Virus record (IMG/VR): IMGVR_UViG_3300010376_000014
Location: 1-47,242 of that record
Length of the DNA: 47,242 nt
Origin: a virus
Strand: one strand, 5' to 3'
Part shown: positions 6,071 to 36,143 of the stretch, in pieces
Position numbering within the stretch: the stretch's first letter is position 1
Layout: each line of letters begins with the position of its first letter
Program-made: the position numbers and the translations under genes
The notes under the pieces: generated by a model
What the model was told of the DNA's origin: nothing
Databases searched by the model: none
The model's input: the letters and a program-made list of their open reading frames with translations, nothing else

Positions 6071-6894
6071 GTAACTGGCGCCTCCCACGTTGCGTTCCAC
6101 GTCTTCGGGCCACACAGACCGTCTGCAGAGAGCCCCTTCTCGGATTGGAATTGCTTGCAGACGCCTTGCGATTGGGAACCATAGATACCATCAACGCTAA
6201 TGGTCCACCCTCGATCCTTCATCTTCTGCTGCCACTTCTTGATCTGACCATTATCGAACCCTCCCCCATGGCCATCATGCCAATTGTTCGATCCATCAGG
6301 CGGCCCGAAGTAATTGTCCTGTGGATACTCCCAAGGCGGCGCGGAGGACGATGGGGGTGGGGTTGACCCGCCTGAGCCTCCACCGCCACCCCGCGCCATG
6401 TCTAGGACGTCGTCTATTGGGAAGGACGACCCGCAGTCCCAATGTCCACCGCCCCATGAGCCAAGATCAGCGTGTTGGCACACCCCCTTGCTTCCGCCTT
6501 GCGCCTGACTTGAACTCAACTTTGTGATTGGAATACCGAACTTGGCTGCTTCTTCGGCTACCCACTTCGCTGTGTTTTGAAGCATAACAGAGTGCTTGTT
6601 CCACTCATCGAAGCTCCACGACGCGAACGCGCACAGTTCTGCCTGTACAGCCACAGGATTGGCGTTCGCTGCGGTCCATGCTTTGTAGTCGCGGCGGACG
6701 TACTCTCCGACTGTGTTGCTCGTGTCATCGATACCGACATGAGAGGAAACTTGGTTCGCTGAGTTTTGGAAGTAGCTCCCAAGTGACTGATACGTGGTTG
6801 CGCCCTCAGCCGTATGCAGTACGATCAAACGTACGGAACTACCTCCGCGACTTGAGTAACACGGCGACGGAATTGAGACTCGTTTGAGTGCCAT
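6067..6894 (-). CDS. Endolysin: N-acetylmuramoyl-L-alanine amidase (amidase_2/PGRP type) with C-terminal peptidoglycan-binding domain
   Basis: VRLIVLHTAEG...SSHVGIDD...CQHADLG amidase signature. G/S/P linker. C-terminal DGIYGSQSQGVCKQFQSEKGLSADGLCGPKTW (PG_binding_1-like). Confidence 0.85.
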   Translation of the reverse strand: MALKRVSIPSPCYSSRGGSSVRLIVLHTAEGATTYQSLGSYFQNSANQVSSHVGIDDTSNTVGEYVRRDYKAWTAANANPVAVQAELCAFASWSFDEWNKHSVMLQNTAKWVAEEAAKFGIPITKLSSSQAQGGSKGVCQHADLGSWGGGHWDCGSSFPIDDVLDMARGGGGGSGGSTPPPSSSAPPWEYPQDNYFGPPDGSNNWHDGHGGGFDNGQIKKWQQKMKDRGWTISVDGIYGSQSQGVCKQFQSEKGLSADGLCGPKTWNATWEAPVT

Positions 6895-23866: not shown

Positions 23867-24152
23867 GGGCATGCGTGAGTGGATACGACACATGGATACT
23901 CACGAACCGCCGACGTATGAGGCAGGTGTGTCTGAAAGGTGGATATGGTTCAAGGAAGGCAAGTGCATGTGCTGCAGTGCTCCACTTGGCACGTACACCA
24001 CAGCTATCGTCAATGCTGGGGGGCTCGCAGGAGTCTTTTGCACAGGCGTCTGTGCGACTGACATAGCGAACATGGGGTTCATTCAGGAGCTGTACGATGA
24101 CATCCAACAAAAGATCAAGTTCCGAGGCGGTAGCGGTGACGCTCCTGAGTGA
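23829..24152 (+). CDS. Hypothetical Cys-rich protein (107 aa)
   Basis: GTG 23829 preceded by AGGAGA. Confidence 0.5.
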   Translation: MSTEGDVYADIPEGMREWIRHMDTHEPPTYEAGVSERWIWFKEGKCMCCSAPLGTYTTAIVNAGGLAGVFCTGVCATDIANMGFIQELYDDIQQKIKFRGGSGDAPE

Positions 24153-25494
24153 GGACAATAGGTACAAGTTCAAGACGAAGCCCTACGCATATCAAGTCGA
24201 GGCGCTGAAGAAACTCGCCAAATTGCCTCGAGGTGGTGGCTTGTACATGGAGATGGGCACAGGCAAGACGAAGGTCGCTATCGACTACGCAGGCATCGAG
24301 AAGCAACTCGGTGAGATAGACACAGTGTTGGTCGTGTGTCCACTGTCCGTATTGGGCGTGTGGGACCTCGAGATCCAGAAGCACTCGAACAAGAATGGAC
24401 TCAAGTGGCACATTGTCAACTACGACAAAATCATCCGAGATCCATGGCAAGACGAAGTGCTCAAGATCACACGAGACAACAAGACGCTGGTGATATTCGA
24501 TGAAGCCCACAAGATCAAGAACCCTCAAGCGAAGAGGTCCAAAATCGCGTACGTTCTTGGGCGTCTCGCTCAACGTGTCCTCCTACTCACAGGTACTCCG
24601 ATCGGGAAATCGCCTTTGGATCTGTTCAGTCAATTCAGGGCGCTGGACGATACAATTCTCGGTAGCTCGTGGGGTGTCTTCAAGCGTACGTATGCGCAGT
24701 GGGGCGGATACGGTGGTTATCAGCTCGTCCGGTACATGAACCTGAAGCAACTCATGGTCAAGGTCGGACCAAACGTCTATCAGATCAAGAAACAGGATGC
24801 CCTTGATCTACCCGCGCGCAGACACGAGATAGTTCCTGTGACTCTAGAGCGATCCCGTAGAGCATACGATCAGATGGCCTGGGAACGCATAGCGGAGATC
24901 GAGGAAGGCATAGTCGAGGCACCGATCATTCTCACGAAGCTACTTCGACTATCGCAGATGACAGGCGGGTGGGTCAAGGATGACACAGGCATCGTGCGTA
25001 AAGTTGGAGACGAGAAGATGAAGGTACTCACCGATCTCGTCGGCGACATGTGGGAGTCCGATCGACTGAAGATCGTTATCTTCTGTCGCTTCCTCGCGGA
25101 ACTCAAGGCGATATGCTATGCAGTACGAGACATTGGGTATTCACCCATCCCGTTTTACGGTAAGACACCACCCAAGAAGCGAGAGCAACTCCTAGCACGA
25201 TTCGATGAGACCGATGAACCCACAGCGTTTGTAGCGCAGACAGCCACTGGGTCACTTGGTATCTCCCTTGTGGCTGCCAGCGAAGCGATATTCTACAGTC
25301 ACAGCTACGACTACATTGAGTTCGCCCAGGCGTGTGATCGTCTACATCGCATAGGACAGCATCATCCTGTGACCTACTACCATCTACTAGCCACAGATAC
25401 GATAGACGAAGCTGTGTGGATGGCGATACGTACAAAGCGCAACCTAGCAGACCTGGTCATGAAGCATGCTGAACTCCTGACAAAGTCGTCATAA
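24097..25494 (+). CDS. SNF2-family DEAD/H-box helicase (465 aa)
   Basis: GTGKT Walker A. DEAHKIKN motif II. C-terminal helicase motif AQTATGSLGISL...CDRLHRIGQ. Confidence 0.85.
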   Translation: MTSNKRSSSEAVAVTLLSEDNRYKFKTKPYAYQVEALKKLAKLPRGGGLYMEMGTGKTKVAIDYAGIEKQLGEIDTVLVVCPLSVLGVWDLEIQKHSNKNGLKWHIVNYDKIIRDPWQDEVLKITRDNKTLVIFDEAHKIKNPQAKRSKIAYVLGRLAQRVLLLTGTPIGKSPLDLFSQFRALDDTILGSSWGVFKRTYAQWGGYGGYQLVRYMNLKQLMVKVGPNVYQIKKQDALDLPARRHEIVPVTLERSRRAYDQMAWERIAEIEEGIVEAPIILTKLLRLSQMTGGWVKDDTGIVRKVGDEKMKVLTDLVGDMWESDRLKIVIFCRFLAELKAICYAVRDIGYSPIPFYGKTPPKKREQLLARFDETDEPTAFVAQTATGSLGISLVAASEAIFYSHSYDYIEFAQACDRLHRIGQHHPVTYYHLLATDTIDEAVWMAIRTKRNLADLVMKHAELLTKSS

Positions 25495-25522: not shown

Positions 25523-25837
25523 ATGTCATACCCAGCAGGTACCCCATATGAAGCCCAAACAGAAGAAGAATCCGAGCACGCCGAAGACTCTCACCCTGCG
25601 GATATACAGGGTAACTTGTCTTCAGAGATATCCGCCGAAAGTGGGCATCCACTCGGCGACTCCGAAGGTGAACTCACACTCGCACACCTCCAAGGTGGGC
25701 TCGATATCGAAGATGACGAAGACCGTGAAGAGCAGGTCACAGGGAGAGGGGTGAATCAGAATGCTGATAGTAGAAGGACCCGATGGGAGCGGGAAAACGA
25801 GCCTATGCAAAGCTCTTTCGGCAGAGCTGAACCTTGA
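25523..25837 (+). CDS. Strongly acidic protein (104 aa)
   Basis: AGGAGG Shine-Dalgarno. D/E-rich. Its 3' end overlaps the kinase gene by 77 nt in another frame. Confidence 0.5.
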   Translation: MSYPAGTPYEAQTEEESEHAEDSHPADIQGNLSSEISAESGHPLGDSEGELTLAHLQGGLDIEDDEDREEQVTGRGVNQNADSRRTRWERENEPMQSSFGRAEP

Positions 25838-26336
25838 ACTCGCGCCGATATATGCCCGCAGTCGTAGGGACATGCCCAAGACAGGTGTCAGGCGCCGCGT
25901 GTGGAATGGTATCGGCGCGATGCTGCGGGGGCAGATATTCATCCACGATCGTCTGTATTTCTCTGAGATAGTGTACGGCACGATACTCAGGGGCGGTATA
26001 GACTTCAGCATCGAAGAGATCACGTGGATCAAATATACATTAGACGAGTTCGAGGTACCCATCATCCTGTGTCTACCACCATGGGAGGTTACATGGGAGA
26101 ATATGATGGACGATATCGGTGCGCAGCAAAGCATCGATAAACTGCGAGAGATCTACAGGGTGTACCAAGGTATGACTCAAGATCCTGAGTTGCTCGCTCG
26201 TCCATACGACTACACTTCGGAGCATGATACGGTAGAAGATTTGATCACGTGGATCGAACCAAAACTCAACGATCTAAGGAGACGCTTTGGAGTTACTGAT
26301 GGGGGACGCACAGATAGCGCTAGCGCCGGAACCTAG
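25761..26336 (+). CDS. P-loop (deoxy)nucleoside monophosphate kinase, thymidylate-kinase-like (191 aa)
   Basis: N-terminal MLIVEGPDGSGKTS, as in Tmk/dNMP kinases. Confidence 0.7.
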   Translation: MLIVEGPDGSGKTSLCKALSAELNLELAPIYARSRRDMPKTGVRRRVWNGIGAMLRGQIFIHDRLYFSEIVYGTILRGGIDFSIEEITWIKYTLDEFEVPIILCLPPWEVTWENMMDDIGAQQSIDKLREIYRVYQGMTQDPELLARPYDYTSEHDTVEDLITWIEPKLNDLRRRFGVTDGGRTDSASAGT

Positions 26337-26478
26337 TGGTGGCTTCGTCTTGAAGATAGCCCATGAGAAGTTGCCGTTCACGATATGGATACCTGTCGAG
26401 AGGGATCGAGCGGACACATTCGCTGATGCTCTCATGAACACAATGAGAAGGAAGCGAGTGGTGGTGCCTAATGCGTGA
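26287..26478 (+). CDS. Hypothetical protein (63 aa)
   Basis: TTG start with AAGGAGA 5 nt upstream. ORF track. Confidence 0.45.
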   Translation: MELLMGDAQIALAPEPSGGFVLKIAHEKLPFTIWIPVERDRADTFADALMNTMRRKRVVVPNA

Positions 26479-26794
26479 ACTGCAGAAAGAGCTCCACGAG
26501 TGGAGGATGTACAACTTTCCCGAGTGTACGCCCGAGGACCAATTCATGGGCATGGTCGAGGAAATGGGCGAGATTGCTCACGCTCTGCTCAAGACGAAGC
26601 AAGGCATCCGCATCGAGGACGAGATTCAGGGTCACGCCAAGGTCAGGGACGGCATCGCAGATCTAGTGATCTACACAATGGGACTATGCTCACTGATGGG
26701 ATGGGACCTCGAGGCTCTCGTCTCATCCGTGGCTAACAATGAGGTCATGCAACGCGACTGGATCAAATATCCGAAGGACGGCATGACCACATGA
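26471..26794 (+). CDS. mazG: MazG-like all-alpha nucleoside triphosphate pyrophosphohydrolase (107 aa)
   Basis: MGMVEEMGEIAHALLK...DGIADLVIYTMGL fits the EExxE...D layout of small phage MazG proteins. Confidence 0.7.
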   Translation: MRELQKELHEWRMYNFPECTPEDQFMGMVEEMGEIAHALLKTKQGIRIEDEIQGHAKVRDGIADLVIYTMGLCSLMGWDLEALVSSVANNEVMQRDWIKYPKDGMTT

Positions 26795-27168
26795 AAGACA
26801 CAGACTGGGCATACTTAGCTGGACTCATCGACGGAGAGGGATGCATTAGTACAGTGCATACTAATCCTCGTAATGGACAATTCAACGCCAAGATAGCTAT
26901 AGTGAACACAGACAAAACCGTCCTCGATTGGATAGTGAAAACATTCGCTGTGGGTAATGTGTATCCAAGACGCCTGAGGCTTCCCATGAAGCAATCATGG
27001 CGATGGCAACTGGCTGCAGGTTCGTCTGTTTCCCGCATCCTGAATGGGGTTTATCCGTATCTCATCATCAAGAAGGACCAAGCAGTACTCGCTATTGAAC
27101 TATGCTCTCGACCGGCAAAGCGCCGACAACTCGAGATCTACGGGGCACTTCGTGAGGCAAAGCGATGA
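26791..27168 (+). CDS. LAGLIDADG-family homing endonuclease (125 aa)
   Basis: Canonical YLAGLIDGEGC motif. ATGA overlaps at both ends. Visibly more A/T-rich than the flanks. Confidence 0.85.
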   Translation: MKDTDWAYLAGLIDGEGCISTVHTNPRNGQFNAKIAIVNTDKTVLDWIVKTFAVGNVYPRRLRLPMKQSWRWQLAAGSSVSRILNGVYPYLIIKKDQAVLAIELCSRPAKRRQLEIYGALREAKR

Positions 27169-28004
27169 GAATGAAAAAGTATCGTGACCTTACTGAGTTG
27201 TGGAACAGGGAAGCTGAATCAATGGTGCTAGCGACCTGGAAAGAGATCGACTTCGTAAGCGGACTTGACGTGATTCGCTACGACAACCTCGTCGGCTGTG
27301 ACTCGATGGCATATAAATTCGATCTCGGGAGACATCTGTGGCTGAATCGTTCTCGCTTCACTGTGCTCCAGCGAGAGTATCTCGACCTTGCCCAATTAGA
27401 GTCCTTCTTGGGTAGGGCCACCGAAATAGGACTTGGTGGTGTCAAGCACGGTGTGGTCACATCGATGCCCTTTCGCTCGCCTGAGTTCCGTGCGAAGAAG
27501 CATAGGTGGGGTGGATGCATGTCCTCATTGGCGTTCCGCATGTCCGCCGAAGGACAACCTGTTTTGGTACTGCAGTCTCGTGTGACCTACATCACATACA
27601 TGGGTGGCTGTGATCTTGCCTTGTGCCACGTGATAGCAAGAGAGATAGGGCAGCGTATTGGCAAGATACCCGAAGACTTTGCATTCCGGTGGAACTGTGC
27701 ATCTCATCAGGCTCATTCATTCAAAGGCATCCCATATCTGTTCCACGCCAATTTGTGGCCTGTGATTGTAGACGAAAGATCAATCGAGCAATACCCTGAC
27801 TCTGACTATCCAGCATTGAAATTGATCCGAAAGTGGGCTCGGATCATTGTTGAACGTCATGAAGTCGGGGTACCTCTTGATGAAGAGAAATACGGACCCC
27901 TCCGACGAGTCAGACGCCGATACGAAGAATGGATGAGGGACGAGCCGTTACCGAAAGTACCCGTCACATCGTTGACCCTACAACCACTTCGGGAACGTGG
28001 GTGA
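27165..28004 (+). CDS. Highly divergent thymidylate-synthase-fold-like protein (279 aa), function unknown
   Basis: By-eye alignment: HGVVTSMPFRSPE ~ SRRIIVSAWNVGE; GGCMSSLAFR ~ APCHAFFQFY; LVLQSRVTYITYMGGCDLALCHVIA ~ [29 protein letters not shown]. Confidence 0.4.
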   Translation: MRMKKYRDLTELWNREAESMVLATWKEIDFVSGLDVIRYDNLVGCDSMAYKFDLGRHLWLNRSRFTVLQREYLDLAQLESFLGRATEIGLGGVKHGVVTSMPFRSPEFRAKKHRWGGCMSSLAFRMSAEGQPVLVLQSRVTYITYMGGCDLALCHVIAREIGQRIGKIPEDFAFRWNCASHQAHSFKGIPYLFHANLWPVIVDERSIEQYPDSDYPALKLIRKWARIIVERHEVGVPLDEEKYGPLRRVRRRYEEWMRDEPLPKVPVTSLTLQPLRERG

Positions 28005-28185
28005 GAAACGCATAGGAAAGCGTAAAATACAGAAGCGCAAGTGGGACAACGCAAATCGGCGAACCGTCTGCTCTGTGTGTGGCACTTTGATATGGAACCA
28101 CCGAGAGCACTCAGGTCTGTGTCGATCCTGCAGTACGAAGCGTAGACCTCGAGATGAACATGGGAATCTACTGCCGTACAAATAA
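27997..28185 (+). CDS. Small basic Zn-ribbon protein (62 aa)
   Basis: CSVCG...CRSC. GTG start overlapping the upstream gene. Confidence 0.4.
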   Translation: MGEKRIGKRKIQKRKWDNANRRTVCSVCGTLIWNHREHSGLCRSCSTKRRPRDEHGNLLPYK

Positions 28186-28197
28186 TGCCACGTAGTG

Positions 28198-28226
28198 CGA
28201 CATGGAGGAAACGAGGATGCGATAAT
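28198..28226 (+). promoter_or_regulatory. Possible promoter P5: weak -35 (CGACAT) - 17 nt (ending GGATGC) - GATAAT
   Basis: Shares the GGATGCGA(C/T)AAT core with P1-P3. The -35 element is poor. Confidence 0.35.
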
Positions 28227-28262
28227 AATGTTGCACACGTACATACACATAGGAGGTCAACC

Positions 28263-28691
28263 GTGGTAGCAAAAAAGACAGACAGACCGAAGTTCAATCC
28301 TCAGGAGCTCATCGATGAGCAGGTTGCCCAGATCAACCGCGCCATCGACGAGATAGACAAGCGCATGAAGCCTTACGAGACACTCGCAGCGAAGAAGTTG
28401 CAGCTTGTGGCTGCTCGTCGTGCGCTACTAGGGACAGGCAACAGACTCACCGGCAACGCGGGTCATCGTGTGACGCTCGATGATCTGATCTCGTTCATCT
28501 CAGAGAATCCCGGCGCGTCTCCAGGTCAAATGGCTGAACACTTCGGTGTCACGCAGGGGACGATCAGCAGTCACTTGTACCGCAATAAGGATCGCTTCGT
28601 GCGGAACAACGGATCGTACTGGGTGAAGGATCCCGCCGCTGGGATCAACACGTCTGCCGATGTGGAGAAGGAGGACGATGACGAGACCTGA
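28263..28691 (+). CDS. Winged-helix/HTH putative transcription regulator (142 aa)
   Basis: GTG 28263 preceded by TAGGAGGT. GQMAEHFGVTQGTISSHLYRNKDRF HTH-like segment. Confidence 0.55.
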   Translation: MVAKKTDRPKFNPQELIDEQVAQINRAIDEIDKRMKPYETLAAKKLQLVAARRALLGTGNRLTGNAGHRVTLDDLISFISENPGASPGQMAEHFGVTQGTISSHLYRNKDRFVRNNGSYWVKDPAAGINTSADVEKEDDDET

Positions 28692-28854
28692 TTGGGAAGC
28701 TGTCGCCTGTCCACACTGTGGTGCGAAGGTTGGAGAACATTGCAAGAATCCCGACGGATCGAAGTACCAATACGTCCACCGCAAGCGCTACGAGGCATAC
28801 GCGAAGGAGGCAGAGCATGCAGTTCGAGCAGATATACAACTCCCTCCTCGCTAA
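28678..28854 (+). CDS. Small Zn-finger protein (58 aa)
   Basis: CPHCGAKVGEHC. Overlaps the next gene by 38 nt. Confidence 0.45.
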   Translation: MTRPDWEAVACPHCGAKVGEHCKNPDGSKYQYVHRKRYEAYAKEAEHAVRADIQLPPR

Positions 28855-29587
28855 CGTGATCGAGGGCATGCCTGTGGATCGTGGCGAGTGGCACGCGAAG
28901 GACGTGCGTGGCATACCGAAGCTCGTGTCGTACGAGGTCAGAGACATCGCCTTCGATCTGTGGTGTCCGCCGACGATGGTGGAGCTGCAGGACGATTACA
29001 AGCCGAATCTGCCCTGGGCAGAGGATCACTTTCAGGAGCGAGTCAGTGGGCAACCCTTGAATCCCCCACCGTCGCATGCGTGGTGGCCCTTTGGCAATAC
29101 ACAGACCCACATGCAGGAAGGCAAGTTCAGCCACTCGTATCCCGAGCGGTATTGGCCCAAGCGTGCGGGGGCTCAGCGATACTCAGAGGAGCTAGGCGGT
29201 ATCCGATTCGAGTGGGGCGATCTCGATGATCTCGTGTCCTTGCTGAGTGAGCGTCCCATGACGCGACAAGCATACCTGCCTGTGTGGTTTCCTGAAGATC
29301 TGACAGCCGCTCGTGAGAAGGAGCGCTGTCCCTGCTCTTTGGGTTATCACTTTCTCGTGCATGAGGAACACAACGGACTGAGGATGGACTGTGCGTATTT
29401 CATGCGGTCTTGTGACTTCGTGCGGCACTTCAGGGACGATATGTATCTGACCGCCCGACTGATGCAGTGGGTCGGTGACAAGATCGAGATTCAACCATCG
29501 GAGCTACACGTCTACATCTCGTCACTCCACTGCATAGAGGGTGACCTCGACAATCTGAGGGAGGAGTATGAGAATCTCTCGCGATGA
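28817..29587 (+). CDS. Thymidylate synthase / dCMP hydroxymethylase family protein (256 aa)
   Basis: AAGGAGG Shine-Dalgarno. RQAYLPVWFPED, CPCSLGYHFLV, YFMRSCDFVRHFRDDMYL and SSLHCIEGD align by eye with T4 gp42 (NMRSNDVVFGFRNDYAW, GSLHVYSRH) and with ThyA. Confidence 0.65.
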   Translation: MQFEQIYNSLLANVIEGMPVDRGEWHAKDVRGIPKLVSYEVRDIAFDLWCPPTMVELQDDYKPNLPWAEDHFQERVSGQPLNPPPSHAWWPFGNTQTHMQEGKFSHSYPERYWPKRAGAQRYSEELGGIRFEWGDLDDLVSLLSERPMTRQAYLPVWFPEDLTAAREKERCPCSLGYHFLVHEEHNGLRMDCAYFMRSCDFVRHFRDDMYLTARLMQWVGDKIEIQPSELHVYISSLHCIEGDLDNLREEYENLSR

Positions 29588-30077
29588 CATGTTTCTCCGT
29601 GTGGCTGAAGTCATCGCGCTGCGCGGTACGTGTCCACGAGCCACAGTTGGAGCAGTGCTTGTCCGTCACGGACGCATCATTAGCATCGGGTACAATGGCG
29701 CCCCATCTGGGATGCCGCACTGCGAGGATGAGGGTTGCGACGTCCCATTTGCGGGAGGAGGATGCGTTCGAGCGATTCACGCAGAGACTAATGCGATACT
29801 CTGGGCAGCACGTGAGGGCGTCTCTACAGATCAAACTACGATGTATTGCACACATGCGCCCTGCGTCAACTGTGCCCTAACTGTGGCTATGGCGGGTATC
29901 ACTGAGTTTCATTATCTATATAACTACCGTGATCCTGGTGGATTGAAGATCCTTACCGACTACGACGTTGCACATTGGAGGCGGAGTGGAGCCGGATCAG
30001 TTGCAGATGCAGAAGATAGTGAGAGTGATGCAGCGGATCGAAATAGTAGTAATCTCTCAGACGGAAGAGGGATCTGA
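29568..30077 (+). CDS. dCMP deaminase (169 aa)
   Basis: Zinc-site motifs HAETNA and PCVNCA. Typical CMP/dCMP deaminase layout. Confidence 0.85.
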   Translation: MRISRDDMFLRVAEVIALRGTCPRATVGAVLVRHGRIISIGYNGAPSGMPHCEDEGCDVPFAGGGCVRAIHAETNAILWAAREGVSTDQTTMYCTHAPCVNCALTVAMAGITEFHYLYNYRDPGGLKILTDYDVAHWRRSGAGSVADAEDSESDAADRNSSNLSDGRGI

Positions 30078-30131: not shown

Positions 30132-32504
30132 GTGAACTGGAGAGATCAAATCCGAGACAGTAAGTGCACAGCCTGTGGCTTGCATGAGAACGCCCAGTAC
30201 GTTTGCCTGATGGGGACAGGCAAACGTTCTTCTCGTCTCATGATTATCGGGGAGGCACCAGGTGCCCGAGAAGATGAAGAACACCGAGCCTTTGTGGGTC
30301 CCGCGGGGCAACTTCTCAACGATCTATTATCCGAAGTGGGGTTGTCTCGTGAAGATGCCTATATCTCAAACGCCGTCAAGTGTCGTCCGCCAAGCAACGA
30401 GACCCCAACGCGAGTCCATATCAAAGCGTGTGCGCAGTATCTCATCCGTGAGCTCGAGGAGGTAGAGCCTGAATATGTACTTGCTCTTGGCAATTCTGCG
30501 CTCCAAGCCCTTACCGGGAGATCTGGTATTACTAAGTATCGGGGGCGACTGCATAGTCTTGGAGGAACCCAGGTCCTCCCCACCTTTCACCCTGCAGCGG
30601 CGCTCCGATCTCCAAGGTATCTCCCGTCGATCAAGGCAGACTTTCGTGCGCTTGCCCGATACATGGATAACTCACACATGGGGAGTAATGGACTATCCAC
30701 ACGTGTCCGCATCATCCGTAATGCTGGACAACTCAGGTGGCTCATCAACCGCCTAGCCACAGCTGAGGTCATCGCGTTCGATCTGGAGACTACAGGGCTA
30801 AACGAGTTCGCGGAAGGAGCCAAGATTGTTACCCTCGGAGTCGCGTGGGAACCTGGTTGTGCTGCAGTCGTCCCACTTCATCACAGCGCAGGAACTTTTG
30901 CGGAACCTGCCAAGATCTTACATCAGCTCAAACCGGTTATGGAGAGAACAGACTGTCGTTACGTTGGGCATAACGCCAAGTTTGATACGAGATGGCTTGG
31001 ACGTTTCGGTATCTATACACCGACTTCCTTCGATACGATGCTTGCCTCCCACCTTCTCGACGAGAACGGACAACACGGACTCAAGCCCCTATCACAACTC
31101 CATCTCGGAGCTCTTGACTACGATATTGGGGATGATGTCAAGGACGCCTACAACACTAACCTAAAGCGACTTTGTATCTACAACGGAAAGGATTGTGACT
31201 ATACTTTACGACTATATCTTCGTCTTCGGGAAGAGCTCAAACAGCAGCCCCGTCTCGCAAGGCTCTTCACCCGACTCACCATGCCTGCTAGTCGTGCTCT
31301 GCTACGAGTTGAAGTTGCTGGGCTTCAAGTGAATACCGACAGGCTCATCAACAGGGCTAAGGAGACAGAATACAAGATCCTGAAATGCAAGAACTACATG
31401 GACCAATACGTGCCGGAAGATATGAAACCAATCAACTACAACTCTCCAGCACAGATTGGCCTGTGGCTATTCGGTTCGATGGGGCTGCCTATACTTGAGA
31501 GGACCAAGAGTGGGGCGCCATCGACCCGTGAGGCAGTGCTATTCCAACTCGCGAAGCAGCATAAGGCAGTCGAGGTCCTGTTGCGCTATCGGAAGTGGTC
31601 CAAGTATTACTCCACTTACATCACGGCATGGGCTGAGGCTATTGATCCAAGAGGACGTCTTCACACTTCTTACCTCTTGCATGGAACTGTCACCGGACGA
31701 CTATCCAGCCGCAATCCAAATCTCCAACAAGTCCCACGGGACCCGTTTATACGCGGCATTCTCGGAGCACCGCTCGGATGGAAGTTTGTCGAAGCTGATT
31801 ATTCGCAGGTTGAGTTGAGGATAGCAGCCATGATCGCACAGGAAAGAAGCATGTTACGGCTATTCGCTCTCGGGGAAGATATACATATGAGCACCGCATG
31901 CTTCATGACAGGAAAGATCCCAGCGCAGGTCACGAGTGAGGAACGGAAGAAAGCGAAAGCCGTCAACTTCGGCTTCCTTTATGGCATGGGTGCTCAGAAG
32001 TTCGTGACCTACGCACGGGACAGTTATGATGTGGAGGTTACCCTTGCTGAAGCAGAAAAGGTCAGAGACCGTTTCTTTGAACGGTATCCACGTCTACGCA
32101 CGTGGCATGATAGACAGCGAAGACTCGCAACGAGATACGGTCGAGTGCAGTCGCCTCTTGGGCGGATACGGCACTTGCCAGATGTGCGGTCGACAGATTC
32201 AGACGTACGTGCTGAGTCGGAACGACAGGCTATCAATTCGCCCGTCCAGTCCTTTGCGAGTGATCTCATGCTCGTGTCCCTTACACGGCTGGATCGCGCC
32301 TTCCCTAACAACGTGGCGCGCACCGTAGGATCAGTGCACGATGCTCTGCTCTTCGAGGTTAGAGAGCAATACGTGGATGAAGTGTGTGCCAAGATCAAGG
32401 AGGTTATGGAGGATACAGACTACGTAAAGAAAGTATTTGGAACCGAGATTACAGTGCCGATCGAAGTCGAGATAAAGGTCAGCGATCATTGGGGCGAGTC
32501 ATGA
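30132..32504 (+). CDS. polA: Fusion: family-4 uracil-DNA glycosylase-like domain + 3'-5' exonuclease + family A DNA polymerase (790 aa)
   Basis: UDG4: CTACGL...GEAPG...KCRPP...FHPAAALR. Exo: FDLETTGL, HNAKFD, YNGKDCDY. Pol: DYSQVELR, RKKAKAVNFGFLYGMG, SVHDALLFEV. Confidence 0.9.
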   Translation: MNWRDQIRDSKCTACGLHENAQYVCLMGTGKRSSRLMIIGEAPGAREDEEHRAFVGPAGQLLNDLLSEVGLSREDAYISNAVKCRPPSNETPTRVHIKACAQYLIRELEEVEPEYVLALGNSALQALTGRSGITKYRGRLHSLGGTQVLPTFHPAAALRSPRYLPSIKADFRALARYMDNSHMGSNGLSTRVRIIRNAGQLRWLINRLATAEVIAFDLETTGLNEFAEGAKIVTLGVAWEPGCAAVVPLHHSAGTFAEPAKILHQLKPVMERTDCRYVGHNAKFDTRWLGRFGIYTPTSFDTMLASHLLDENGQHGLKPLSQLHLGALDYDIGDDVKDAYNTNLKRLCIYNGKDCDYTLRLYLRLREELKQQPRLARLFTRLTMPASRALLRVEVAGLQVNTDRLINRAKETEYKILKCKNYMDQYVPEDMKPINYNSPAQIGLWLFGSMGLPILERTKSGAPSTREAVLFQLAKQHKAVEVLLRYRKWSKYYSTYITAWAEAIDPRGRLHTSYLLHGTVTGRLSSRNPNLQQVPRDPFIRGILGAPLGWKFVEADYSQVELRIAAMIAQERSMLRLFALGEDIHMSTACFMTGKIPAQVTSEERKKAKAVNFGFLYGMGAQKFVTYARDSYDVEVTLAEAEKVRDRFFERYPRLRTWHDRQRRLATRYGRVQSPLGRIRHLPDVRSTDSDVRAESERQAINSPVQSFASDLMLVSLTRLDRAFPNNVARTVGSVHDALLFEVREQYVDEVCAKIKEVMEDTDYVKKVFGTEITVPIEVEIKVSDHWGES

Positions 32505-33271
32505 TCAGCGTCTTCACTCCCTCCCACAATCCCCTGTGGCTAGATCAATGTCACGAGAGCCTGAGGACCCAGACACTATGGGATTGGGAATGGATCGTGT
32601 TGCTCAACGGTGACGCGGAGTGGGAGTGTGACGATCCCCAGGTCCGGATATATCGGTTCCCACGATCAGGTACGGTTGGACTCATGAAAGCTGTGGCCTG
32701 TACGCACGCTTCTGGCAGTATCTTGGTCGAGCTAGATCATGACGATGTACTTCTGCCTGACGCACTGATGGAAATAGACCGAGCGTTCAGTGAGAATCCG
32801 ACAGCCACACTCGTGTACAGCGACTTCGCCCAAATGTTCGAGGATGGTACGCCGGATGAATCAGATTTCGACTTGAGGAATGGATGGGAGTCAACACCGG
32901 AGTACTATGAGGGACAAACGTATAAGCGCTGGCGTGCTCCCAAGCCGTGGCCCGTGAATGTTGGACTGATCTGGTTCGCGCCTAATCATATCCGCGCGTT
33001 CCGCACATCTACCTACCACGAGGTCGGTGGGTACGACCCCAACAGACGTGTGCTCGACGATCAAGATCTGATGATGCGGCTGTATATGAGAGGACCATTT
33101 ATCCACATCGACAGACTACTGTACTTGGTCAGGGTACATGACGGCAACACTCAAAAAGACCCCGAGCTCAATGCTCAGATCCAATGGGAGACAGTTCAAA
33201 TGTATTGCCAACAGAGGGAGGCACTCCATTTGGCATATATGTCTCATAACGGGTTGATACAATTACAGTGA
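32501..33271 (+). CDS. Family 2 (GT-A) glycosyltransferase (256 aa)
   Basis: MISVFTPSHNPLWLDQCHESLRTQT...LVELDHDDVLLPDAL (DxD). ATGA overlap with the polA stop. Confidence 0.75.
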   Translation: MISVFTPSHNPLWLDQCHESLRTQTLWDWEWIVLLNGDAEWECDDPQVRIYRFPRSGTVGLMKAVACTHASGSILVELDHDDVLLPDALMEIDRAFSENPTATLVYSDFAQMFEDGTPDESDFDLRNGWESTPEYYEGQTYKRWRAPKPWPVNVGLIWFAPNHIRAFRTSTYHEVGGYDPNRRVLDDQDLMMRLYMRGPFIHIDRLLYLVRVHDGNTQKDPELNAQIQWETVQMYCQQREALHLAYMSHNGLIQLQ

Positions 33272-35816: not shown

Positions 35817-36143
35817 GTGAAGTTGGCAGCTATCGTCTCTGTGCTCATAGTTCCTTTCCATCAGTCCAAGGCGAGACACTATAACACACGAATGACGCCT
35901 TTGGCATGGTGCGTATCGGGACTAGAATCCAACCATAATTTCCAAGCCGCCACTGGTAATGGATACTATGGGGGGTATCAGTTCGATATACCTACTTGGA
36001 GATGGGCGCAGAGACTGATGGGTGTCTGGTACGCAACACGCGCAGATTGGGCGTCAGTTGCGCAGCAGACAGCCGTGTTCAACTACTACGAGCCCCGATA
36101 CCCTGGAGCATGGCCACGGACGGTGCCTGCTTGCGGAGGATGA
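35817..36143 (+). CDS. Rpf-like transglycosylase-domain protein with N-terminal signal/anchor (108 aa)
   Basis: CVSGLESNHNFQAATGNGYYGGYQFDIPTW...GAWPRTVPAC matches the resuscitation-promoting-factor domain signature (ECES..TGNGYYGG.QF..W...WP.C). Confidence 0.75.
   Translation: MKLAAIVSVLIVPFHQSKARHYNTRMTPLAWCVSGLESNHNFQAATGNGYYGGYQFDIPTWRWAQRLMGVWYATRADWASVAQQTAVFNYYEPRYPGAWPRTVPACGG

Follow-up and report, generated by a model that had tools for sequence, protein, structure and literature searches.

A divergent phage gene with a predicted thymidylate synthase-type fold, paired with a dCMP-type thymidylate synthase homolog

Gene X is an open reading frame (ORF) of 279 amino acids (aa) at 27165..28004 on the plus strand of IMG/VR virus record IMGVR_UViG_3300010376_000014. 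The window analysed here is the whole stretch of 47,242 nucleotides (nt) of that record, a phage genome of about 47 kb. A first-pass annotation, made from the letters of the DNA, described the product of X as an orphan with only a ghost of the thymidylate synthase (TS) fold, encoded in a nucleotide-metabolism operon that also carries a second TS-fold protein (28817..29587). The question raised by this locus is what so divergent a protein does beside a TS homolog. X proves to be a conserved gene that is restricted to phages and is genetically coupled to a TS homolog of the deoxycytidine monophosphate (dCMP) type in phages of three bacterial phyla, and its predicted structure has a TS-type fold. 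The proposal that X is an active, non-folate enzyme of the TS superfamily, with a cytosine nucleotide as its substrate and the neighbouring TS homolog as its partner, stands about an even chance of being right.

Predicted fold and active site

The upstream LAGLIDADG gene and X share an ATGA, in which the stop codon of the former overlaps the ATG of the latter, and a GAGG Shine-Dalgarno sequence lies 5' of this start. Comparison with three metagenomic relatives of about 80% identity gave a nonsynonymous value (pN) of 0.16-0.19 and a synonymous value (pS) of 0.78-0.87, the latter being saturated. X is under strong purifying selection and is therefore a real gene.

The AlphaFold2 model of X, built from a 54-sequence alignment, has a predicted local distance difference test score (pLDDT) of 94.4 and a predicted template modelling score (pTM) of 0.92, with no disordered segment. 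When this model was searched against the PDB with Foldseek, the top 50 matches were all TS-fold structures, with E values of about 1e-5 to 1e-3 and a probability of 1.00; the template modelling (TM) scores were 0.40-0.48 normalised to the query and up to 0.60 normalised to the target. The best match was the dCMP hydroxylase AfhB of phage HY126 (9iqu; E 1.1e-5; TM 0.48 query, 0.60 target), followed by 9iqc, MilA, the T4 dCMP hydroxymethylase and many ThyA structures (E 1e-4 to 1e-3 for ThyA). The best matches in BFVD were three uncharacterised viral proteins (TM 0.63-0.78), and the annotated matches ranking below them were mostly TS or dCMP hydroxymethylases. Structure prediction gave a TS fold and no unrelated fold. 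The ghost of a TS fold is thus real and above chance, as is also suggested by hhalign comparisons of the X family with TS profiles (E 0.0032 and 0.00095).

The TS alpha/beta fold is built on a central mixed sheet, with helix A, helix J and the strand that bears the Cys in canonical order, and the model of X conforms to this. The order of secondary-structure elements in the model is that of E. coli ThyA up to the His207 strand, and the segment from the second strand to the helix-G equivalent is about 30 residues in X versus about 75 in ThyA. Past His184, the His207 equivalent, X has 95 helical residues versus 57 residues in E. coli ThyA, which bears out the roughly 90 extra C-terminal residues first reported. 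This C-terminus is predicted to be a different helical module and not the closing tail of TS. It holds a conserved K-Y-G-P-x-R248-x-R-x-R252 motif, in which R248 is present in 106 of the 119 members of the family alignment. That alignment consists of 119 diverse representatives with 21-78% identity to X and a mean column identity of 18%.

Two X-family alignments were compared with two overlapping TS alignments in three hhalign runs, which gave one common register, in keeping with where strands and helices begin and end in the X model. Only Y72, G116, C118, R139 and W176 are invariant in all 119 members; R64 (116/119), S138 (118/119) and D150 (115 Asp and 4 Glu) are near-invariant (at least 95%). 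In the common register C118 falls on the TS nucleophile Cys146, R139 on Arg166 and D150 on Asn177, and W176 and H184 pair with W201 and H207 of ThyA. Asp in place of Asn177 is a marker of cytosine-specific TS homologs (PMC13326640, PMC8670742), a group that includes the T4 dCMP hydroxymethylase, MilA, the Xp12-type dCMP methylase and the 5-hydroxy-dCMP synthases. The most conserved residues of X therefore appear to coincide, as judged from these alignments, with the nucleophile, the phosphate anchor and the base-specificity residue of TS, the last in its cytosine state. Alignments of the Cys strand and of the QSR...D helix that had been made by eye follow the same register. The match to an SRRIIVSAWN-like strand was not confirmed; it was based on secondary-structure order and its Arg pair is not conserved.

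The position of Leu143, in the register that pairs C118 with Cys146, is W115 (Trp in 95/119). An acidic residue at this position, which admits water, marks the dCMP hydroxymethylases (PMC13326640) and is absent from X. Global hhalign gave no reliable counterpart of the Trp80/Trp83 folate segment. It aligned the N-terminal half with a probability of only 0.3%, and therefore no TS counterparts were assigned to R64 and Y72, which are candidate phosphate-binding and general acid/base residues. The features of X are as follows.

27165..28004, plus strand: gene X, divergent TS-fold protein by prediction, PHROG 13667, homolog of Muddy gp47 (ORF call, PHROG, AlphaFold2, Foldseek, selection)
27354..27380, plus strand: codons R64 to Y72, a helix with a near-invariant Arg (R64, 116/119) and an invariant Tyr (Y72, 119/119)
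27516..27518, plus strand: codon of Cys118 in the motif W115-G116-G-C118, aligned with the TS nucleophile Cys146 (119/119; hhalign; start of strand 119-126)
27576..27590, plus strand: codons S138-R139-V140-T141-Y142, with R139 aligned to Arg166, V140 to Ser167 and Y142 to Asp169 (hhalign register)
27612..27614, plus strand: codon of Asp150, aligned with TS Asn177, the uracil-versus-cytosine specificity residue (three hhalign runs; Asp in 115/119)
27717..28001, plus strand: predicted C-terminal helical module, residues 185-279, in place of the TS C-terminal region (DSSP helices 189-278; pLDDT 93-97)

Family, linkage and cassette

The description of X as an orphan was wrong. X matches PHROG 13667 (unknown function) with an E value of 8.6e-34, and tblastn found it in 85 cultured actinophages, where it is annotated as a hypothetical protein in every case. 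Of these, 68 infect Gordonia and 9 infect Mycobacterium, the latter including Muddy, where the gene is gp47, and FF47; the others are phages of Streptomyces, Microbacterium and Curtobacterium. Metagenomic relatives form 196 clusters at 90% identity in a word-indexed search. When 1.84 billion representatives were searched exhaustively with a profile, 259 clusters at 50% identity (E<=1e-3) were recovered; among the full-length members aligned, the longest has 371 aa. A profile scan with a close-clade alignment found no cellular copy of X in species-representative genomes. Profile matches to an unrelated family were absent from the Pfam, NCBIfam and PDB sequence searches. No paper was found on X, on Muddy gp47 or on what the DNA of these phages is composed of, nor functional data for Muddy gp46/gp47, cytosine modification in actinophages, PMBT14 or P744. 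Nothing in the databases or literature searched describes this family, the change in its active site or its obligate pairing with another TS homolog; the fold and general chemistry are already known.

The linkage was surveyed in IMG/VR in 31 loci seeded by X and in the 80 best loci seeded by the TS homolog. In 30 of the 31 X-seeded loci the TS homolog lies downstream on the same strand, and the exception ends at X. X is immediately upstream on the same strand in 63 of the 80 TS-seeded loci, with a median gap of 33 nt, and the stop and start codons of the two genes often overlap. The other 17 comprise two loci without upstream flank, five with a protein termed X2 upstream (described below) and ten without an X-type gene. 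A dCMP deaminase is found in 90/94 and PolA in 91/94 of the X-bearing loci. The co-occurrence survey suggested in the first-pass annotation thus shows that X is linked near-obligately with the second TS-fold gene and also with dCMP deaminase. The expected co-occurrence with a GT2 glycosyltransferase was not borne out: within 7 kb there was no homolog of the window's GT2 gene in 111 related loci, which include relatives of about 80% identity. The GT2 gene is therefore lineage-specific and was rejected as a member of the module.

In the roughly ten loci without an X-type gene the gene upstream of the TS homolog is unrelated to X (L066 6145-6909; L071 4397-5116; L093/L109 ~6100-6820; L098/L105 ~6100-6850). 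By eye, the products of these upstream genes resemble a highly acidic single-stranded DNA-binding protein, a metallophosphoesterase or a methyltransferase.

The same gene order, consisting of helicase, kinase, MazG/dUTPase, X, TS homolog, dCMP deaminase and PolA, is shared by Muddy, Cozz and Triscuit. Among distant metagenomic members, P0190 and P0246 have the full cassette arrangement and P0267, a short contig, has X, the TS homolog and the deaminase. Directly in front of the X-type gene stands a MazG/dUTPase-superfamily gene in each of the three cultured lineages that were examined, namely those of actinophages, of proteobacterial phages and of Clostridium phage CPD4, and in two of the inspected metagenomic loci. 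The subfamily of the partner TS is present in 114 cultured-phage records, with per-genus counts that match those of X (85) and X2 (18); about ten of the records come from phages of Clostridium perfringens, of which CPD4 was examined and has an X-like gene upstream. In the window, ORF and Pfam calls confirmed that X sits between a LAGLIDADG homing endonuclease and a Zn-ribbon ORF in a nucleotide-metabolism operon. The genes of this operon, and the GT2 gene that overlaps its PolA gene, are listed here.

24097-25494, plus strand: SNF2 helicase
25761..26336, plus strand: P-loop deoxynucleoside monophosphate (dNMP) kinase of the cassette, thymidylate-kinase-like (PF02223, phrog_761; synteny)
26471..26794, plus strand: all-alpha MazG/PRA-PH-type nucleoside triphosphate pyrophosphatase (Pfam and PHROG matches; synteny)
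26791..27168, plus strand: LAGLIDADG homing endonuclease between the MazG gene and X (PF00961, phrog_5046)
27997..28185, plus strand: Zn-ribbon ORF
28185-28691, plus strand: winged helix-turn-helix protein
28660-28854, plus strand: Phage_zn_bind_8 zinc-finger ORF, 64 aa (PF24623, E 2.3e-9)
28817..29587, plus strand: partner TS homolog, dCMP-type (PF00303, E 9.1e-8)
29568..30077, plus strand: dCMP deaminase of the cassette (PF00383, E 2e-20)
30132-32504, plus strand: fusion of uracil-DNA glycosylase (UDG), exonuclease and PolA (UDG is PF03167, E 1.6e-34)
32384-33271, plus strand: GT2 glycosyltransferase ORF overlapping the PolA 3' end (PF00535, E 1.5e-6)

Since only 4/31 related loci have a homolog of the LAGLIDADG gene, this gene appears to have entered the nucleotide cassette recently as a mobile insertion, outside the conserved module. 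The polymerase of the window is a three-domain fusion of a family-4-type UDG, a 3'-5' exonuclease and PolA, and the fused UDG argues against uracil-containing DNA in this phage. There are two hints of the host: a 77%-identical fragment of X (P0047) is deposited in a Ktedonobacteraceae metagenome-assembled genome, and the window encodes an Rpf-like transglycosylase domain (PF06737) at 35817-36143. The G+C content of the window, about 54%, is compatible with both.

The ORF call for the partner TS homolog begins at a GTG at 28718. The likely true start is the ATG at 28817, behind a GAAGGAGG Shine-Dalgarno sequence, and the stretch upstream of it belongs to the separate Phage_zn_bind_8 ORF. The partner homologs share a catalytic Pro-Cys, an R-S-x-D motif, the changes N177D, L143R and R127Q, a Ser or Thr at His147 and a short C-terminus that ends about 20 residues past His207. 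The best NCBIfam match of this subfamily is the short methanogen-type TS (TIGR03283), and it is weak. Whether the partner makes a 5-methyl, 5-hydroxymethyl or other product is not predictable from published rules. A link to the 5-methylcytosine system of Xp12 and PaMx74 was rejected, as their TS enzymes fall outside the partner subfamily.

A neighbourhood of the same kind has been reported from viromes. In the MetaGPA study, contigs with modified cytosine show a dCMP deaminase within 3 kb (<=3 kb) of an N177D TS homolog, PRA-PH and PolA; five of the seven TS homologs made 5-methyl-dCMP, and the deaminases turned 5-methyl-dC nucleotides into dT (bioRxiv 10.1101/2024.12.05.627091). This neighbourhood is the cassette around X. 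Since X has no Pfam domain, it would escape a domain-based analysis of that type.

Two sister types of protein occupy the place of X in other phages. X2 is an ORF of 250-295 aa upstream of the TS homolog, with motifs GxC, [YW]R[ST]TE and [AP]D[LH]. It belongs to PHROG 34294 (unknown function) and has no Pfam match. The X-family hidden Markov model did not detect X2 at E<=10, so X2 is not recognisable as X by profile-to-sequence search; profile alignment with hhalign shows the homology (probability 96%, E 3.4e-9, 224 columns). X2 is present in 18 cultured phages of Proteobacteria, including PMBT14 (gp48), Almagne, Serratia phage Serbin and Brevundimonas phages. Yersinia phage vB_YenM_P744 encodes X2 as ORF027, which GenBank annotates as 'pyrimidine hmase synthase', and the cassette around X2 is identical in P744 and PMBT14, the two genomes examined. 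The second type, CPD4_74 of Clostridium phage CPD4, matches X in hhalign (probability 97%, E 1.5e-11) and has a dUTPase_2 gene on one side and an N177D TS homolog on the other. Loci of the X2/CPD4_74 type are these.

L045: 6123-6962
L080: 6141-7022
L104: 5910-6707
L116: 5791-6534
L121: 5007-5840
L122: 5001-5789
L123: 3196-3945

Both types share with X the slot between a pyrophosphatase and the N177D TS homolog, and both keep the Gly-x-Cys, Arg, Asp and Tyr. They differ in having [YW]R[ST]TE, with Glu at the position of Asp169, where X has SR[TV]xY, and they occur in phages of Proteobacteria and Firmicutes, whereas X is found in Actinobacteria-type phages.

Possible functions of X

The mechanism proposed for X is modelled on TS chemistry. 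X would bind a cytosine (deoxy)nucleoside monophosphate, with Arg139, probably together with Arg64 and Arg248, holding the 5'-phosphate and Asp150 reading N3/N4 of the cytosine. The thiolate of Cys118 would add to C6 and thereby activate C5, and Tyr72 may act as an acid/base. Since the folate determinants of TS (Asp169, the Trp80/Trp83 segment and the C-terminal tail) are absent, the electrophile or cofactor is probably not methylene-tetrahydrofolate, and X may be independent of folate. As an obligate companion of the adjacent dCMP-specific TS homolog, X would act on the substrate or the product of that protein, before or after it in a pathway resembling that of T4, with kinase, dCTPase, C5-modifying enzyme and deaminase. 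The cassette as a whole, with dNMP kinase, dCTPase/dUTPase-like pyrophosphatase, X, TS-like protein, dCMP deaminase and PolA, may supply the polymerase with a non-canonical pyrimidine pool.

Several results weigh against this proposal. The hhalign probability of X versus TS is only 10-22%, so that sequence similarity alone is not significant, and the residue mapping is based on alignment and secondary structure. The query-normalised TM-scores against TS structures are below 0.5. Pfam gave no match for X at E<=1, PF00303 included, and 0/119 family members matched any Pfam model; NCBIfam gave no match for the family, and PDB sequence searches with shallow and deep family profiles returned chance matches only, such as TNFAIP3 (E 0.14-0.29). 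The active site is also altered. The first-pass annotation had stated that the R-S-x-D residues are not conserved, and this was correct for Asp169, which is lost (position 142 is Tyr in 88, Phe in 12, Arg in 6 and Ser in 3 of the 119), but not for the Arg, which is kept as R139 in every member; at the position of Ser167 there is Thr in 78/119 and Val in the X of the window, so the motif is kept in part. The positions of Arg126 and Arg127 are, by strand order, K94 and H95, and position 95 is Arg in only 61/119. About 10 of 78 TS-seeded loci, mostly jumbo-phage contigs (>100 kb), have no X-type gene; therefore, the TS homolog can work without X. No cofactor can be named for X, and no experimental report of modified DNA was found for Muddy, Gordonia phages or PMBT14-type phages.

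The first-pass annotation had left open a C5-pyrimidine enzyme with a TS fold or a non-catalytic partner. Both the fold and the setting support this pair of options, and the invariant Cys and Arg and the near-invariant Asp favour the catalytic one. A non-catalytic subunit or regulator, which would bind the dCMP-type TS homolog, the nucleotide or both and would tune activity, specificity or channelling, is possible rather than probable. All TS enzymes need a dimer partner, and such a role would fit the near-obligate adjacency of the two genes with their often overlapping stop and start codons, as well as the asymmetric dependence by which X never occurs without the TS-like gene and the TS-like gene sometimes occurs without X. 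It would also fit the R127Q change and truncated C-terminus of the partner TS beside the extra C-terminal module of X, and the loss from X of Ser167, Asp169 and the folate elements. However, pseudoenzymes usually lose the nucleophile, while Cys118, Arg139 and Asp150 are among the most conserved residues of X and persist in X2 and CPD4_74, and the 150 clusters that scored best, out of 259, contained no X-TS fusion. Also rejected was a heterodimer to which X would contribute the Arg126/Arg127 pair, as one TS subunit does for the other: those positions are not conserved in X, and X2 proteins likewise lack a basic pair at them.

A decoy or inhibitor that sequesters a host nucleotide or poisons a host enzyme, for example as a heterodimer with ThyA, and so redirects pyrimidine flux, is improbable. 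Inhibition of the pyrimidine enzymes of the host is common among phages whose pyrimidine content is altered, and X does keep the fold and the nucleotide-binding residues while having lost the folate site. However, sequestration needs no invariant nucleophilic Cys, and the same pairing is found in phages of Actinobacteria, Proteobacteria and Clostridium despite the differing TS types of their hosts; X follows the phage's own TS homolog and not host taxonomy. Slightly more doubtful still is a stand-alone flavin- or oxygen-dependent dCMP C5-hydroxylase of the AfhB/RB69 gp48 type, with a cassette that makes a 5-hydroxy-dC derivative. The best PDB matches are AfhB structures (9iqu, target TM 0.60, and 9iqc), 'gp42' proteins of 234-235 aa from Acinetobacter-type phages score similarly in BFVD, and X is compact and without the canonical Asp169, as these enzymes are. 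Their higher target-normalised TM is, however, expected because the targets are smaller. The dCMP-hydroxylating TS homologs described in 2025-26, which use a loosely bound flavin, carry a D169N signature (PMC13326640), and by this criterion X does not belong to them, since position 142 is never mainly Asn but Tyr or Phe, and X2 and CPD4_74 have Glu. Those enzymes also work without a second TS homolog, to which X is tied, and the sole glycosyltransferase of the window is conserved in no relative. It is very improbable that convergence or an artefact of modelling accounts for the TS resemblance and that X has an unrelated function; the absence of a significant sequence profile and the moderate TM-scores would allow it, but the model is highly confident, the top 50 PDB matches are of one fold family, the hhalign runs agree on the catalytic-residue register, and X lies in a pyrimidine-nucleotide cassette beside a bona fide TS homolog. 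The proposal of an active, non-folate enzyme acting with its neighbour is therefore the one retained here.

Known TS-fold enzymes and biological meaning

The closest structural match of X is AfhB, which stands with the 5-hydroxy-dCMP synthases RB69 gp48 and DLP3 gp80. These enzymes resemble X in having a compact TS fold, Asp at the position of Asn177 and equivalents of the Cys and Arg166, and in being encoded by phages; the AfhB/RB69 gp48 type feeds modified dC into DNA. The identity is only about 11%, and unlike this type X has a 95-residue helical C-terminal module and is paired with a second TS homolog, with no conserved glycosyltransferase partner.

The T4 dCMP hydroxymethylase gp42 and the CMP hydroxymethylase MilA likewise share with X the TS fold, the Cys nucleophile, Arg166 and Asp for Asn177, and the cassette of X parallels T4 gp1 (kinase), gp56 (all-alpha dCTPase), gp42 and cd (deaminase). 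T4 gp42 and MilA belong to PF00303, which detects no member of the X family. In X, Ser167, Asp169, the Trp80/Trp83 folate segment and the Arg126/127 pair are either absent or unconserved, and the position of Leu143 is Trp and not Asp or Glu.

ThyA has the same alpha/beta fold and element order as the X model, and its C146, R166, H207 and W201 align with C118, R139, H184 and W176. X differs from ThyA by its Asp at position 177 and its lack of a folate site, and ThyA or ThyX co-occurs with it in some phages. In addition to X and an N177D TS homolog, Microbacterium phage Triscuit (L002 8373-10078) encodes gp67, which is 64% identical to E. coli ThyA, and locus L006 (9752-11199) encodes ThyX. X is therefore not the phage's thymidine monophosphate synthase, and this candidate was rejected. 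There are up to three pyrimidine-C5 enzymes per cassette in Triscuit and L006.

To our knowledge, the TS fold has long been known from few activities, namely methylation, hydroxymethylation and, since 2025-26, hydroxylation of pyrimidine mononucleotides, and for each of these one enzyme suffices, which is recognised by PF00303. The X family is sizeable, with its 259 clusters at 50% identity and its sister family, and is invisible to sequence methods. It keeps the residues of covalent catalysis and not the folate site, and its pairing with one particular dCMP-type TS homolog is close to one-to-one. As a partner subunit, X would make the pair the first TS-type enzyme known to be heteromeric.

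If X is an enzyme, it would carry out a new reaction in phage pyrimidine metabolism. It may tentatively be suggested that X together with X2 and CPD4_74 forms a new class of enzymes on the TS scaffold, defined by the Cys/Asp/Arg/Tyr set and using C5 chemistry that needs no folate, with dCMP or the product of the partner TS as substrate. As a possible example, the exocyclic methylene could be re-formed from 5-hydroxymethyl-dCMP and a new nucleophile captured. Phages of the Muddy, Emalyn, Triscuit, PMBT14 and CPD4 types would then build a new cytosine derivative at the mononucleotide level, by two TS-fold enzymes in series. More than 100 cultured phages may carry an overlooked modified cytosine if X is an enzyme, including Muddy, which has been used clinically against Mycobacterium abscessus. 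This would matter for evasion of restriction and CRISPR, for artefacts in sequencing and for the engineering of phages.

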